From Escherichia coli (lineage in GTDB: Bacteria > Pseudomonadota > Gammaproteobacteria > Enterobacterales > Enterobacteriaceae), in the NCBI RefSeq assembly GCF_003334315.1, contig NZ_QOWR01000003.1: 64,000 nucleotides of DNA. One strand, given 5' to 3'. Under the pieces are notes generated by a model. It saw only the letters and a program-made list of their open reading frames with translations, was not told the origin of the DNA and did no database searches. The translations under genes were made by a program, and so were the position numbers. Shown piece by piece: positions 2,807-50,083 of the stretch. Numbering within the stretch: position 1 is the first letter of the stretch; each line of letters begins with the position of its first letter.

Positions 2807-4114
<1,308 letters not shown>

Positions 4115-13944: not shown

Positions 13945-14041
13945 GCGAATTGCCTGCTGCGCTACGCTTATCAGGCCTACAAAGTTTCTGAATTACAAAC
14001 CTTTGTAGGCCGAATCAGGCGTTCATGCCGCATCTGACATG
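13945..14041. repeat. BIME: two REP elements in inverted orientation
   Basis: GCCTGCTGCGCTACGCTTATCAGGCCTAC and GTAGGCCGAATCAGGCGTTCATGCCGCATCTGACATG between the convergent yajR and yajQ ends. Confidence 0.8.
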
Positions 14042-22077: not shown

Positions 22078-22085
22078 GAGTCCAG

Positions 22086-22118
22086 GCCTGATGAGACGTG
22101 ACAAGCGTCACATCAGGC
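22086..22118. repeat. REP-like palindrome
   Basis: GCCTGATGAGACG...CGTCACATCAGGC between the convergent yajO and pgpA 3' ends. Confidence 0.55.
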
Positions 22119-22130
22119 ATCGGTGCACAA

Positions 22131-22649
22131 CTACGACAGAATACCCAGCGGCCAGTGATGACCGATAAAATACAGGATGCCTGCGGAAATCACCCCGGCG
22201 ACAATATCGTCGATCATGATCCCCATGCCGCCATGCACATTGCGATCAAACCAGCGGATCGGCCACGGCTTCCACATATCCAGAATACGGAAAATCACAA
22301 ACCCGGCGGCAACCCACTGCCAGTCATTGGTCGGCAGCGCCATGAGCGTGATCCACATACCAATAAATTCGTCCCAGACAATGCTGCCATGATCGTGCAC
22401 ACCCATGTCTTTCGCCGTTTGATGACAAAGATAGACGCCGATACAGATCCCCAGCATCACCACCAGCGAATAGAGCTGCCAGGGCAAAAAGGTCATCAGA
22501 TACCAGAACGGAATCGCTGCCAGCGATCCCATCGTCCCAGGAATGATCGGGCTTAATCCACTTCCGAATCCGACAGCAAGCAGATGCCACGGATTACTCA
22601 TCTTCAGGCGACTTTTCGCGACATCTTTATGGCGTGGCAAAATGGTCAT
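22131..22649 (-). CDS. pgpA: Phosphatidylglycerophosphatase A
   Basis: 172-aa membrane protein; start overlaps thiL 3' end by 23 nt. Confidence 0.94.
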
Positions 22650-28170: not shown

Positions 28171-28270
28171 ATGCCGGATGCGGCGTAAACGCTTTGTCCG
28201 GCCAACAAAAGCACGTAAATTCAATATATTGCTGAAATAACGTAGGCCTGATAAGCGTAGCGCATCAGGC
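28171..28270. repeat. Two REP elements (BIME)
   Basis: ATGCCGGATGCGGCGTAAACGCTTTGTCCGGCCAAC and GTAGGCCTGATAAGCGTAGCGCATCAGGC between tsx and yajD. Confidence 0.8.
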
Positions 28271-42284: not shown

Positions 42285-43487
42285 ATGCGCATCCTTCACA
42301 CCTCAGACTGGCATCTCGGCCAGAACTTCTACAGTAAAAGCCGCGAAGCTGAACATCAGGCTTTTCTTGACTGGCTGCTGGAAACAGCACAAACCCATCA
42401 GGTGGATGCGATTATTGTTGCTGGTGATGTTTTCGATACCGGCTCGCCGCCCAGTTACGCCCGCACGTTATACAACCGTTTTGTTGTCAATTTACAGCAA
42501 ACTGGCTGTCATCTGGTGGTACTGGCAGGAAACCATGACTCGGTCGCCACGCTGAATGAATCGCGCGATATCATGGCGTTCCTCAATACGACCGTGGTCG
42601 CCAGCGCCGGACATGCGCCGCAAATCTTGCCTCGTCGCGACGGGACGCCAGGCGCAGTGCTGTGCCCCATTCCGTTTTTACGTCCGCGTGACATTATTAC
42701 CAGCCAGGCGGGGCTTAACGGTATTGAAAAACAGCAGCATTTACTGACAGCGATTACCGATTATTACCAACAACACTATGCCGATGCCTGCAAACTGCGC
42801 GGCGATCAGCCTCTGCCCATCATCGCCACGGGACATTTAACGACCGTGGGGGCCAGTAAAAGTGACGCCGTGCGTGACATTTATATTGGCACGCTGGACG
42901 CGTTTCCGGCACAAAACTTTCCACCAGTCGACTACATCGCGCTCGGGCATATTCACCGCGCACAGATTATTGGCGGCATGGAACATGTTCGCTATTGCGG
43001 CTCCCCCATTCCACTGAGTTTTGATGAATGCGGTAAGAGTAAATATGTCCATCTGGTGACATTTTCAAACGGCAAATTAGAGAGCGTGGAAAACCTGAAC
43101 GTACCGGTAACGCAACCCATGGCAGTGCTGAAAGGCGATCTGGCGTCGATTACCGCACAGCTGGAACAGTGGCGCGATGTATCGCAGGAGCCACCTGTCT
43201 GGCTGGATATCGAAATCACTACTGATGAGTATCTGCATGATATTCAGCGCAAAATCCAGGCATTAACCGAATCATTGCCTGTCGAAGTATTGCTGGTACG
43301 TCGGAGTCGTGAACAGCGCGAGCGTGTGTTAGCCAGCCAACAGCGTGAAACCCTCAGCGAACTCAGCGTCGAAGAGGTGTTCAATCGCCGTCTGGCACTG
43401 GAAGAACTGGATGAATCGCAGCAGCAACGTCTGCAGCATCTTTTCACCACGACGTTGCATACCCTCGCCGGAGAACACGAAGCATGA
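42285..43487 (+). CDS. sbcD: Nuclease SbcCD subunit D (Mre11-like phosphoesterase)
   Basis: 400-aa product [24 protein letters not shown]... from ATG at 42285; calcineurin-like motifs (DWHLG, GDVFD, GNHD). Confidence 0.95.
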
Positions 43488-46400
43488 AAATTCTCAGCCT
43501 GCGCCTGAAAAACCTGAACTCATTAAAAGGCGAATGGAAGATTGATTTCACCCGCGAGCCGTTCGCCAGCAACGGGCTGTTTGCTATTACCGGCCCAACA
43601 GGTGCGGGGAAAACCACCCTGCTGGACGCCATTTGTCTGGCGCTGTATCACGAAACTCCGCGTCTCTCTAACGTTTCACAATCGCAAAATGATCTCATGA
43701 CCCGCGATACCGCCGAATGTCTGGCGGAGGTGGAGTTTGAAGTGAAAGGTGAAGCGTACCGTGCATTCTGGAGCCAGAATCGGGCGCGTAACCAACCCGA
43801 CGGTAATTTGCAGGTGCCACGCGTAGAGCTGGCGCGCTGCGCCGACGGCAAAATTCTCGCCGACAAAGTGAAAGATAAGCTGGAACTGACAGCGACGTTA
43901 ACCGGGCTGGATTACGGGCGCTTCACCCGTTCGATGCTGCTTTCGCAGGGGCAATTTGCTGCCTTCCTGAATGCCAAACCCAAAGAACGCGCGGAATTGC
44001 TCGAGGAGTTAACCGGCACTGAAATCTACGGGCAAATCTCGGCGATGGTTTTTGAGCAGCACAAATCGGCCCGCACAGAGCTGGAGAAGCTGCAAGCGCA
44101 GGCCAGCGGCGTCACGTTGCTCACGCCGGAACAAGTGCAATCGCTGACAGCGAGTTTGCAGGTACTTACTGACGAAGAAAAACAGTTAATTACCGCGCAG
44201 CAGCAAGAACAACAATCGCTAAACTGGTTAACGCGTCAGGACGAATTGCAGCAAGAAGCCAGCCGCCGTCAGCAGGCCTTGCAACAGGCGTTAGCCGAAG
44301 AAGAAAAAGCGCAACCTCAACTGGCGGCGCTTAGTCTGGCACAACCGGCACGAAATCTTCGTCCACACTGGGAACGCATCGCAGAACACAGCGCGGCGCT
44401 GGCGCATATTCGCCAGCAGATTGAAGAAGTAAATACTCGCTTACAGAGCACAATGGCGCTTCGCGCGAGCATTCGCCACCACGCGGCGAAGCAGTCAGCA
44501 GAATTACAGCAGCAGCAACAAAGCCTGAATACCTGGTTACAGGAACACGACCGCTTCCGTCAGTGGAACAACGAACCGGCGGGTTGGCGTGCGCAGTTCT
44601 CCCAACAAACCAGCGATCGCGAGCATCTGCGGCAATGGCAGCAACAGTTAACCCATGCTGAGCAAAAACTTAATGCGCTTGCGGCGATCACGTTGACGTT
44701 AACCGCCGATGAAGTTGCTACCGCCCTGGCGCAACATGCTGAGCAACGCCCACTGCGTCAGCACCTGGTCGCGCTGCATGGACAGATTGTTCCCCAACAA
44801 AAACGTCTGGCGCAGTTACAGGTCGCTATCCAGAATGTCACGCAAGAACAGACGCAACGTAACGCCGCACTTAACGAAATGCGCCAGCGTTATAAAGAAA
44901 AGACGCAGCAACTTGCCGATGTGAAAACCATTTGCGAGCAGGAAGCGCGCATCAAAACGCTGGAAGCTCAACGTGCACAGTTACAGGCGGGTCAGCCTTG
45001 CCCACTTTGTGGTTCCACCAGCCACCCGGCGGTCGAGGCGTATCAGGCGCTGGAGCCTGGCGTTAATCAGTCTCGATTACTGGCGCTGGAAAACGAAGTT
45101 AAAAAGCTCGGTGAAGAAGGTGCGACGCTACGTGGGCAACTGGACGCCATAACAAAGCAGCTTCAGCGTGATGAAAACGAAGCGCAAAGCCTCCGACAAG
45201 ATGAGCAAGCACTTACTCAACAATGGCAAGCCGTCACGGCCAGCCTCAATATCACCTTGCAGCCACTGGACGATATTCAACCGTGGCTGGATGCACAAGA
45301 TGAGCACGAACGCCAGCTGCGGTTACTCAGCCAACGGCATGAATTACAAGGGCAGATTGCCGCGCATAATCAGCAAATTATCCAGTATCAACAGCAAATT
45401 GAACAACGCCAGCAACTACTTTTAACGACATTGACGGGTTATGCACTGACATTGCCACAGGAAGATGAAGAAGAGAGCTGGTTGGCGACACGTCAGCAAG
45501 AAGCGCAGAGCTGGCAGCAACGCCAGAACGAATTAACCGCGCTGCAAAACCGTATTCAGCAGCTGACGCCGATTCTGGAAACGTTGCCGCAAAGTGATGA
45601 ACTCCCGCACTGCGAAGAAACTGTGGTATTGGAAAACTGGCGGCAGGTACATGAACAATGTCTCGCATTACACAGCCAGCAGCAGACGTTACAGCAACAG
45701 GATGTTCTGGCGGCGCAAAGTCTGCAAAAAGCCCAGGCGCAGTTTGACACCGCGCTACAGGCCAGCGTCTTTGACGATCAGCAGGCGTTCCTTGCGGCGC
45801 TAATGGATGAACAAACACTAACGCAGCTGGAACAGCTCAAGCAGAATCTGGAAAACCAGCGCCGTCAGGCGCAAACTCTGGTCACTCAGACAGCAGAAAC
45901 GCTGGCACAGCATCAACAACACCGACCTGACGACGGGTTGGCTCTCACTGTGACGGTGGAGCAGATTCAGCAAGAGTTAGCGCAAACTCACCAAAAGTTG
46001 CGTGAAAACACCACGAGTCAAGGCGAGATTCGCCAGCAGCTGAAGCAGGATGCAGATAACCGTCAGCAACAACAAACCTTAATGCAGCAAATTGCTCAAA
46101 TGACGCAGCAGGTTGAGGACTGGGGATATCTGAATTCGCTAATAGGTTCCAAAGAGGGCGATAAATTCCGCAAGTTTGCCCAGGGGCTGACGCTGGATAA
46201 TTTAGTCCATCTCGCTAATCAGCAACTTACCCGGCTGCACGGGCGCTATCTGTTACAGCGCAAAGCCAGCGAGGCGCTGGAAGTCGAGGTTGTTGATACC
46301 TGGCAGGCAGATGCGGTACGCGATACCCGTACCCTTTCCGGCGGCGAAAGTTTCCTCGTTAGTCTGGCGCTGGCGCTGGCGCTTTCGGATCTGGTCAGCC

Positions 46401-46630
46401 ATAAAACACGTATTGACTCGCTGTTCCTTGATGAAGGTTTTGGCACGCTGGATAGCGAAACGCTGGATACCGCCCTTGATGCGCTGGATGCCCTGAACGC
46501 CAGTGGCAAAACCATCGGTGTGATTAGCCACGTAGAAGCGATGAAAGAGCGTATTCCGGTGCAGATCAAAGTGAAAAAGATCAACGGCCTGGGCTACAGC
46601 AAACTGGAAAGTACGTTTGCAGTGAAATAA
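43484..46630 (+). CDS. sbcC: Nuclease SbcCD subunit C (Rad50-like SMC ATPase)
   Basis: 1048-aa ORF; Walker [10 protein letters not shown], long Q/E-rich coiled coil with central CPLCG zinc hook, signature LSGGESF and Walker B LFLDEGF; ATGA overlap with sbcD. Confidence 0.97.
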
Positions 46631-46755: not shown

Positions 46756-47940
46756 ATGAAAAAAGTCATTTTATCTTTGGCTCTGGGCACGTTTGGTTTG
46801 GGGATGGCCGAATTTGGCATTATGGGCGTGCTCACGGAGCTGGCGCATAACGTAGGAATTTCGATTCCTGCCGCCGGGCATATGATCTCGTATTATGCAC
46901 TGGGGGTGGTGGTCGGTGCGCCAATCATCGCACTCTTTTCCAGCCGCTACTCACTCAAACATATCTTGTTGTTTCTGGTGGCGTTGTGCGTCATTGGCAA
47001 CGCCATGTTCACGCTCTCTTCGTCTTACCTGATGCTCGCCATTGGTCGGCTGGTATCCGGCTTTCCGCATGGCGCATTTTTTGGCGTCGGAGCGATCGTG
47101 TTATCAAAAATTATCAAACCCGGAAAAGTCACCGCCGCCGTGGCGGGGATGGTTTCCGGGATGACAGTCGCCAATTTGCTGGGCATTCCGCTGGGAACGT
47201 ATTTAAGTCAGGAATTTAGCTGGCGTTACACCTTTTTATTGATCGCTGTTTTTAATATTGCGGTGATGGCATCGGTCTATTTTTGGGTGCCAGATATTCG
47301 CGACGAGGCGAAAGGAAATCTGCGCGAACAATTTCACTTTTTGCGCAGCCCGGCCCCGTGGTTAATTTTCGCCGCCACGATGTTTGGCAACGCAGGTGTG
47401 TTTGCCTGGTTCAGCTACGTAAAGCCATACATGATGTTTATTTCCGGTTTTTCGGAAACGGCGATGACCTTTATTATGATGTTAGTTGGGCTAGGGATGG
47501 TGCTGGGAAATATGCTAAGTGGCAGGATTTCAGGACGTTATTCACCACTGCGCATTGCAGCAGTGACTGACTTTATAATTGTACTGGCACTGCTGATGCT
47601 CTTTTTCTGCGGCGGCATGAAAACAACGTCGCTTATTTTTGCTTTTATTTGTTGCGCGGGATTATTTGCCCTTTCAGCACCGCTACAAATATTGTTACTA
47701 CAAAACGCCAAAGGCGGAGAGTTATTAGGTGCCGCAGGTGGGCAAATAGCGTTTAACCTCGGTAGCGCCGTCGGCGCATATTGCGGAGGTATGATGCTGA
47801 CGCTGGGGCTGGCATATAATTACGTGGCGCTGCCTGCCGCCCTGCTTTCATTTGCTGCGATGTCGTCGTTGCTGCTGTATGGTCGCTATAAGCGCCAGCA
47901 AGCGGCGGATACTCCGGTGCTGGCGAAACCACTGGGGTAG
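46756..47940 (+). CDS. araJ: MFS transporter AraJ
   Basis: 394-aa product MKKVILSLALGTFGLGMAEFGIMG... from ATG at 46756; ORF track extension rejected. Confidence 0.9.
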   Translation: MKKVILSLALGTFGLGMAEFGIMGVLTELAHNVGISIPAAGHMISYYALGVVVGAPIIALFSSRYSLKHILLFLVALCVIGNAMFTLSSSYLMLAIGRLVSGFPHGAFFGVGAIVLSKIIKPGKVTAAVAGMVSGMTVANLLGIPLGTYLSQEFSWRYTFLLIAVFNIAVMASVYFWVPDIRDEAKGNLREQFHFLRSPAPWLIFAATMFGNAGVFAWFSYVKPYMMFISGFSETAMTFIMMLVGLGMVLGNMLSGRISGRYSPLRIAAVTDFIIVLALLMLFFCGGMKTTSLIFAFICCAGLFALSAPLQILLLQNAKGGELLGAAGGQIAFNLGSAVGAYCGGMMLTLGLAYNYVALPAALLSFAAMSSLLLYGRYKRQQAADTPVLAKPLG

Positions 47941-47967
47941 GTTATAGTCTCGGTGCTCATTACTTAT

Positions 47968-48067
47968 TGCCGGATGCGGCGTGAACGCCTTATCCGCCCT
48001 ACGCGGTTCTGGCACATTTTGCAGGCCTGATAAGACGCGGCAAGCGTCGCATCAGGCATGATGCGCC
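47968..48067. repeat. Two REP elements (BIME)
   Basis: TGCCGGATGCGGCGTGAACGCCTTATCCGCCCTAC and GCAGGCCTGATAAGACGCGGCAAGCGTCGCATCAGGCATGATGCGCC between the convergent araJ and mak ends. Confidence 0.85.
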
Positions 48068-48082
48068 AATTGCCTACGTTTT

Positions 48083-48991
48083 TTACTCTTGTGGCCATAA
48101 CCACGCAGCGCCGCGTACGCCGCTGGAATCACCGTGCTTCGCCTTACGCACCGGCGTTTCACATTCGCCGCCGAAGACAAATTGTTTAATCAACTGCCCA
48201 ACCGTTTGATATAAACGGTCTACATTGCTCATCCCGCCCCCCAGGACAATCACATCCGGATCGAGAATATTCACGACATGTGCCAGCGATTTTGCCAGCC
48301 GCAGCTCGTAGCGACGCAATGCCAGTTCCGCTACCGGATCGCTTTCTTCAACCAGGCGGATAATTTCACTGCCTTTCAGCGCATGTCCGCTCAAACGACG
48401 ATAATCCATCGCGAATCCCGTGCCCGAAATAAAGGTTTCAATACAACCTTGTTTACCGCAATAACAAGGGACTTCCTCGCGATAACGCAGTTCGTCTTCG
48501 TCCATCCACGGTAGCGGATTGTGTCCCCACTCACCTGCCGTGCCATTGCCGCCGATATGCGCCCGCCCATTGAATGCCACGCCCGCGCCGCATCCCGTGC
48601 CGATAATCACGGCAAATACCGTCTGCGCTCCCGCTGCCGCGCCATCTACTGCTTCTGAAACCGCCAGACAGTTAGCGTCATTTGCCAGCCGCACTTCCCG
48701 CTGCAACCTCGCGCTTAAGTCTTTATCGAATGGCTGACCGTTGAGCCAGGTTGAATTGGCATTCTTCACCACACCGGTGTAAGGCGAAATTGAGCCAGGA
48801 ATGCCCATACCTACCGTTCCGCGCTGCCCCGTCGCCTGCTCCGCCATATCAACCAACGTGGCGATCGTTTCAATAGTCTGCCGGTAATCATCACGCGGCG
48901 TGGGCAGACGATGGCGGTACAACTGCTCCCCTGCATCGCCCAGTGCAATCACTTCAGTTTTGGTGCCGCCTAAATCGATACCTATACGCAC
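48083..48991 (-). CDS. mak: Fructokinase / manno(fructo)kinase Mak (ROK family)
   Basis: ROK-family sugar kinase with CYCGKQGC zinc motif; start taken as GTG (rc of 48989-48991) preceded by AAGGAGAG, giving 302 aa ([14 protein letters not shown]...); start is uncertain. Confidence 0.88.
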
Positions 48992-50044: not shown

Positions 50045-50083
50045 ATGCCGGATGCGACGCCTGCCGCGTCTTATCCGGCGTAC
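50045..50083. repeat. REP element
   Basis: ATGCCGGATGCGACGCCTGCCGCGTCTTATCCGGCGTAC 18 nt after the rdgC stop. Confidence 0.8.

Follow-up and report, generated by a model that had tools for sequence, protein, structure and literature searches.

A REP pair between the convergent araJ and mak genes of Escherichia coli is very probably a single BIME-2 unit

The question raised by the gap between araJ and mak in Escherichia coli is what its palindromic DNA represents. The two genes end against each other, and the hairpins between their stop codons could be read as a repeat element, as a terminator serving both genes, as the gene for a small RNA, or as inverted repeats that arose by chance. REP and BIME elements have been described since the 1980s. 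We examined the gap in a 64-kb window, which here means the whole stretch of E. coli DNA that was analyzed (64,000 nucleotides) and which is oriented in reverse relative to the K-12 chromosome. The local gene order is sbcC, araJ, mak, and rdgC, with sbcC (43484-46630, + strand) as the upstream neighbor of araJ. The araJ gene (46756-47940, + strand) encodes the MFS transporter AraJ of 394 aa and ends with a TAG codon at 47938-47940, as determined from its translation and the RefSeq annotation of the identical locus of strain E308. The mak gene (48083-48991, − strand) encodes a fructokinase/manno(fructo)kinase of 302 aa with a GTG start and ends with a TAA codon at 48085-48083, according to its translation and the RefSeq annotation. 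The positions of the two stop codons bore out the 142-bp convergent gap reported by the first-pass annotation, which extends from stop codon to stop codon at 47941-48082. A literature search for araJ together with REP returned only irrelevant REP-PCR papers, and no locus-specific publication was found.

Two REP units account for 73 of the 142 bp, or for 91 bp (64%) when the linker between them is included. The first unit, REP1, is of the Y type and lies on the − strand at 47968-48002 (35 nt; + strand, TGCCGGATGCGGCGTGAACGCCTTATCCGCCCTAC; − strand with GTAG first, GTAGGGCGGATAAGGCGTTCACGCCGCATCCGGCA), 28 nt from the araJ stop codon. The second unit, REP2, is of the Z2 type and lies on the + strand at 48021-48058 (38 nt, GCAGGCCTGATAAGACGCGGCAAGCGTCGCATCAGGCA, with the head tetranucleotide first), 24 nt from the mak stop codon. 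The units are inverted with respect to each other, and their GTAG/CTAC ends face each other, tail to tail, over an 18-nt linker at 48003-48020 (GCGGTTCTGGCACATTTT), which was judged to be of the S type by its length alone. The GTAG of REP1 is intact (48002-47999, − strand), and the foot of its stem carries a G>C change at 47997, which creates an extra C-C mismatch. The corresponding tetranucleotide of REP2 (48021-48024) reads GCAG owing to T>C at 48022. The element had previously been placed at 47968-48067; its start was exact, but the end lies 9 nt beyond REP2 in a single-copy flank. This right flank (48059-48082, TGATGCGCCAATTGCCTACGTTTT) belongs to a 45-bp stretch, 48046-48090, that occurs in one place per E. 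coli genome at megablast sensitivity, and the flank is therefore unique DNA at that sensitivity. Because 48046-48090 is single-copy, GATGCGCCAATTGCCTAC in the right flank was rejected as a possible third REP of degenerate sequence and likewise as a BIME flank motif that is dispersed through the genome.

The REP consensus scans, which used a head motif, a tail motif, and a complete head-loop-tail pattern, were positive. The head motif GCCKGATGCGRCG with at most one mismatch was found six times in the 64-kb window, compared with 0.63 expected, and the tail motif CTTATCMGGCCTAC with at most two mismatches was also found six times, compared with 0.33 expected; none of 100 shuffled sequences reached six for either motif. 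Two of the six matches of each motif, one per strand, are located in the araJ-mak gap. With a head-loop-tail regular expression that allowed a variable loop, five complete REPs were identified in the 64 kb, and two of them were in this gap. A full-length consensus pattern with a fixed 8-nt loop gave no matches, its loop length being wrong for Y and Z2. In addition, a 116-bp query containing the element matched all 5,426 of 5,426 complete E. coli genomes, at 39 or more places in the median genome. The units show the general characteristics of REPs, being extragenic (between two stop codons), present in high copy number, and dispersed.

These counts bear directly on the reading that the palindromes are chance GC-rich inverted repeats, or the relic of an insertion sequence or MITE. 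Such a reading can draw on the shortness and GC richness of the region and on nothing more, but 0 of 100 shuffles reached the motif counts, and both units match published family sequences. Neither terminal inverted repeats nor target duplications were found around the pair, and in other strains a real insertion sequence, IS1397, sits inside the REP loops. The motif scans, the occurrence at 39 or more places per genome, and the match to published Y and Z2 refute this reading, which retains practically no probability, and a chance origin of the araJ-mak palindromes is excluded.

Both units were compared with the E. coli REP units flanking the RAYT gene yafM, for which Table 1 of Nunvar et al. 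2010 (PMC2817692) gives GTAGGacgGATAAGgCGttCACGcCGCATCcGGCA as Y and GTAGGcatGATAAGaCGcgcCAgCGtCGCATCaGGCA as Z2. REP1 agrees with the published Y at every conserved (upper-case) position, and REP2 agrees with the published Z2 apart from T2 of GTAG and a single additional base in the loop. A GTAG tetranucleotide 5' of the palindrome foot is used as a criterion for REPs (PMC3333891), and REP2 carries GCAG instead. Because GTAG is present at this position in the alleles of O157:H7, O111:H8, and EC11 and in the second K-12 unit, REP2 is, to judge from these alleles, a point-mutated copy of a Z2 unit. Altogether, the consensus scans, the comparison with published Y and Z2, and the genomic dispersal support the REP pair that the first-pass annotation had recognized in the gap.

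The assignment to a class follows from the combination of units. According to the account of Ton-Hoang et al. 2012 (PMC3333891), BIME-2 consists of y and z2 with a short linker S and flanking s, l, or r motifs, and is usually found in tandem, in numbers that differ from strain to strain; in BIME-1, y is combined with z1, and the linker is a long, IHF-binding L. The araJ-mak element shows the inverse arrangement of y and z2 over a short linker, the linker being compared by length only. Since Y and Z2, their inversion, and the short linker match the definition in PMC3333891, we conclude with high confidence that the element is one E. coli BIME-2 unit, in which Y and Z2 are joined tail to tail by an 18-nt short linker. 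In terms of the Bachellier/Gilson/Hofnung nomenclature as summarized in PMC3333891, it shares with BIME-2 the unit types, the inverted layout, and the short linker, and it resembles BIME-2 further in being extragenic, in having a strain-variable copy number, and in being a target of IS1397. The window allele differs from a typical BIME-2 in three respects: it is a single unit without the tandem array, it carries GCAG in place of GTAG on Z2, and it has the G>C change in the foot of Y.

The other REP clusters in the window had been considered to be of the same class. This holds at the level of the superfamily but not of the subtype, the araJ-mak element being the sole cluster in the window with the order Y, short linker, and Z2. 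A BIME-1-type cluster at 28173-28270 consists of Y, a 35-nt linker (28207-28241) with an IHF-like ATTCAATATATTG, and an inverted Z1, and a BIME-1-like pair at 13952-14038 consists of Z1, a 24-nt linker, and Y. Two further elements are single: a nearly perfect Z2-like palindrome with CGGTGCAC after it, at 22083-22131, and a hybrid REP at 50047-50083, which has a Y-type head and a Z2-length loop and lies directly after rdgC. The araJ-mak element resembles the BIME-1 (RIP) examples at 28173-28270 and 13952-14038 in its Y unit and inverted-pair layout. However, its partner is a Z2 of 38 nt and not a Z1, which measures about 29 to 30 nt, and no IHF-like WATCAANNNNTTR site was found in its 18-nt linker. 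Against the Rfam models, only one family reached its gathering score in the window, namely, the sraA small RNA (RF02029) at 422-517 on the + strand, with 106.7 bits.

A resemblance also exists to the REPINs of Pseudomonas fluorescens (PMC3116915), which are inverted REP doublets able to fold as a single long hairpin and for which a RAYT is likewise the presumed mobilizing enzyme. In contrast to REPINs, the arms of the araJ-mak element are of different subtypes, Y and Z2, with a complementarity of 80 to 86%, and the REPINs of P. fluorescens belong to another REP family in another host. When the 95-nt pair was folded on the − strand, one long REPIN-like hairpin had a free energy of −40.7 kcal/mol, compared with about −38 kcal/mol for two separate hairpins. 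Folded individually, the Y hairpin, whose stem contains an internal loop, reached −14.5 and −16.5 kcal/mol on the + and − strands, respectively, and the Z2 hairpin reached −21.8 kcal/mol on both strands (z = −5.4).

Hairpins that are stable on both strands and lie between convergent genes would also suit an intrinsic terminator that is dedicated to araJ and mak, works in both directions, and resembles REPs by coincidence. A coincidence of this kind is difficult to reconcile with the dozens of copies in each genome and with the agreement of the units with the published Y and Z2. In addition, no T-run directly follows either REP stem. When Rho-independent terminators were sought as a GC-rich stem-loop with an immediate T-run, none was detected in 47700-48400, compared with 1.1 sites expected in shuffled sequences. 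Termination would be favored by an alternative hairpin (48039-48074, −18.6 kcal/mol) with six T's in a row after it, but this run starts 4 nt beyond the stem, and two Citrobacter genomes manage with a 6-nt gap between the same genes. We consider a dedicated terminator highly unlikely and retain the BIME-2 unit as the reading of these palindromes. The alternative hairpin itself has an imperfect stem, in which 48059-48074 can pair with 48039-48054, the 3' half of REP2, so that it and the Z2 hairpin are mutually exclusive. The T-run occupies 48079-48084 and reaches into the mak stop codon. This hairpin together with the T-run could act as a weak terminator of araJ.

Strain variation at the locus was examined in complete E. 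coli genomes, among which a locus search found the contiguous locus in 5,299 of 5,426. Alleles were surveyed in 59 chromosomes sampled at regular intervals from the ranked list of all records. The one-unit allele was found in 31 of the 59 chromosomes (53%), a K-12-like two-unit allele in 15 (25%), a B2-type two-unit allele in 12 (20%), and an interrupted allele in 1 (2%), and the two-unit alleles together made up about 45% of the sampled chromosomes. An earlier sample of 39 chromosomes agrees with this distribution (20 one-unit, 11 K-12-like, 7 B2-type, and 1 interrupted). The BIME at araJ-mak is always present in E. coli, being carried by all 5,426 complete genomes, and the variation is therefore one of copy number. 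A comparison of related genomes had been proposed to detect a presence/absence polymorphism; the strains do vary, but between one and two units and by the insertion of IS1397 rather than by presence or absence.

The gap of strain E308 is identical to the 142 bp of the window, whereas that of K-12 MG1655 measures 244 bp (NC_000913.3, 411053-411296). Base for base, the window gap equals the first Y-S-Z2 unit of K-12 together with both unique flanks, and this first K-12 unit carries GCAG on Z2 as in the window. The additional 102-bp unit of K-12 comprises the junction CGGAGCACTTAT, a Y with the canonical foot, a 16-nt linker, and a Z2 with GTAG. The window allele is the product that would be expected from unequal exchange or slippage between near-identical Z2 copies; conversely, the K-12 allele would be expected from a duplication. 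The RefSeq annotation of K-12 MG1655 contains no repeat feature at the araJ-mak gap. GenBank and EcoCyc presumably annotate a four-REP element at this site in K-12. In the phylogroup B2 strains JJ2434 and C25, the gap measures 268 bp and holds two more-divergent units whose internal junction is longer. Gaps of 139 to 142 bp occur in further one-unit alleles (O157:H7, O111:H8, EC11, XJ6.1, and e1-39), which differ in the foot of Y and in GTAG or GCAG on Z2, with GTAG in the O157, O111, and EC11 alleles.

The alleles were also compared in the left flank (47941-47967; 27 nt, GTTATAGTCTCGGTGCTCATTACTTAT), which contains CGGTGCTC...TTAT. Because this motif is similar to CGGAGCAC-TTAT, the junction inside the K-12 two-unit allele at which its units meet head to head, the left flank is probably the edge motif of a mosaic element. 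It also resembles CGGTGCAC, which stands beside the single Z2 unit at 22119-22131, and the junction between the two units of the B2 allele contains a partial copy of the motif. The left flank is highly variable, with 7 to 8 differing positions of 27 nt between the window allele and the O111 and O157 alleles, a divergence that far exceeds that of the neighboring coding sequence. The flank is probably an edge motif of the BIME that is subject to conversion.

IS1397 was found at two positions within the element, and about 2% of chromosomes carry it in a REP loop here. In E300010, an IS1397-family element is inserted in the loop of the Y unit, with the junctions GGCGTGAAC/TGAACTGCACCCC and GGGGTTCAGTTCA/GAACACCTTATCC and a duplication of GAAC. 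This Y-loop insertion was present in two genomes; in E300010, it lies at about 60-1470 of the retrieved locus (L004). In FDAARGOS_448 (locus L131, 2024-2989) and in a further 100 or so genomes, the loop of the Z2 unit is occupied by an IS1397 that has an internal deletion, with the junctions GACGCGTCA/TGAACTG and GTTCAGTTCA/GCAAGCGTC. A junction query identified 106 genomes in which araJ, REP, and IS1397 are contiguous. Judged by their junctions, the Y-loop and Z2-loop copies are two independent insertions into REP loops. A preference of IS1397 for REP loops as targets has been published (cited in the introduction of PMC3333891, among others), and the insertion sites at araJ-mak, as read from the junctions, match this specificity.

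The two-unit alleles are also pertinent to the reading that the element is the gene for a small RNA like naRNA4, a nucleoid-associated RNA that binds HU and that is described in PMC4550694 as derived from REP325. The Rfam model of naRNA4 (RF02564) matches both units, and the K-12 two-unit allele gives a full-length match of 79.8 bits, above the gathering score of 59.5 bits. This match spans the head-to-head Y-s-Z2 junction (locus L001, 1635-1714, + strand), which the model covers and which is missing from the one-unit allele. In the window, each unit matches only half of the model below the threshold of 59.5 bits, REP1 the first hairpin with 33 bits and REP2 the second with 39.2 bits. A promoter scan of 47700-48400 yielded no sites, so that the region offers no promoter-like sequence for such a gene. 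Because the K-12 two-unit allele scores 79.8 bits across its junction, the results suggest that RF02564 recognizes generic BIME-2 junctions and is in effect a generic model of them; Rfam has no REP family as such. A small RNA gene is extremely unlikely here, and a BIME-2 unit remains the preferred reading.

A combination of these observations would make the BIME copy number a functional switch, in which the two-unit alleles of K-12 and B2, with their complete head-to-head Y-s-Z2 module, would provide an HU-binding RNA of the naRNA4 type and a stronger gyrase site, and the one-unit allele would lack the module and could use the alternative hairpin with its U-run to terminate araJ. We regard such a switch as very unlikely. 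If it were true, strains would differ in the local handling of the nucleoid and of supercoils and in the formation of the araJ and mak 3' ends.

Next, we examined the gap in other species by scanning for the Mak C-terminal motif with a degenerate pattern, in a sample without Salmonella, Shigella, or E. fergusonii. Among the matches listed, most were distant ROK kinases, and the informative ones were Escherichia albertii, two Citrobacter genomes, and a few Enterobacter- and Klebsiella-like genomes. In Citrobacter werkmanii (locus L033, about 3325-3345) and Citrobacter sp. FP75 (locus L082, about 145-170), just 6 nt separate the stop codon of araJ from that of the convergent mak, and no REP lies between them. 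The C terminus of AraJ diverges beyond about residue 384 in both Citrobacter genomes. In a Klebsiella-like genome, mak adjoins sbcC, and an E. coli-type REP was not found there. In Escherichia albertii NBRC 107761, araJ is absent, and the order is rdgC, mak, a 140-nt gap, and sbcC (locus L051, 1530-6755); the gap between mak and sbcC holds a single Y-like REP whose head reads ACAG instead of GTAG. Within this limited sample, the element appears to be an addition of the Escherichia lineage to a gap that can be almost empty.

The finding at araJ-mak comprises a known repeat class, a known kind of site, and known types of polymorphism and is in this sense already known. It has little import beyond correct annotation, as copy-number variation between strains and the targeting of REP/BIME by IS1397 are already documented. 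The locus is a clear textbook example and could be used as a marker or control; it combines one- and two-unit alleles, two independent IS1397 insertions, and a REP-free 6-nt gap in two Citrobacter genomes. Once the gap is recognized as repeat DNA, there is also less temptation to take its hairpins for a dedicated terminator or for the gene of a small RNA.

The element was probably seeded, and subsequently expanded or contracted, as a nonautonomous repeat by the RAYT enzyme (TnpAREP/YafM) acting on GTAG-tagged hairpins in single-stranded DNA. Recombination or slippage between near-identical Z2 copies would provide a second route of expansion and contraction. Binding and cleavage by TnpAREP require GTAG and a mismatch in the stem, as described in PMC3333891. 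On the − strand, the sequence contains a Y REP that has GTAG and is internally mismatched, and the Z2 iREP of the same strand carries TGCC/TGAT, which corresponds to the C/T cleavage site given there and would be a candidate for cleavage. The + strand does not have the features of a RAYT substrate because its Z2 carries GCAG. By the published requirements, only the Y unit of the window allele would qualify as a REP for TnpAREP, with GTAG first on the − strand, and the Z2 with GCAG could serve only as the inverted partner to be cleaved.

Several roles at the level of RNA and DNA may be proposed by analogy with other REPs, for which the introduction of PMC3333891 lists termination, mRNA stabilization, and the binding of gyrase, IHF, and Pol I. 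The araJ and mak transcripts would both end in REP stem-loops of −14 to −22 kcal/mol within their 3' untranslated ends, and such stem-loops, whose classical effect is to protect RNA from 3'-to-5' exonucleases, could also partly attenuate transcription that runs on into the gene opposite. REPs are reported to affect translation, by stalling terminating ribosomes, only when they lie within 15 nt of the stop codon (Liang et al. 2015, as cited in PMC12306157). The units at araJ-mak are 28 nt and 24 nt from the stop codons, more than 15 nt, and therefore should not act through ribosome stalling. BIME-2 elements are bound and cleaved by DNA gyrase in vivo (Espeli and Boccard 1997, as cited in PMC3333891 and PMC2817692). 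As duplex DNA, the element would be a candidate gyrase site, which could be useful between convergent transcription units, a single unit being the weakest case. Stabilization, attenuation, mobilization by TnpAREP, and gyrase binding at this locus are thus proposed from the behavior of related elements. With GTAG lost from Z2 and an additional C-C mismatch in the foot of the Y stem, the element may in part be undergoing decay instead of being maintained.
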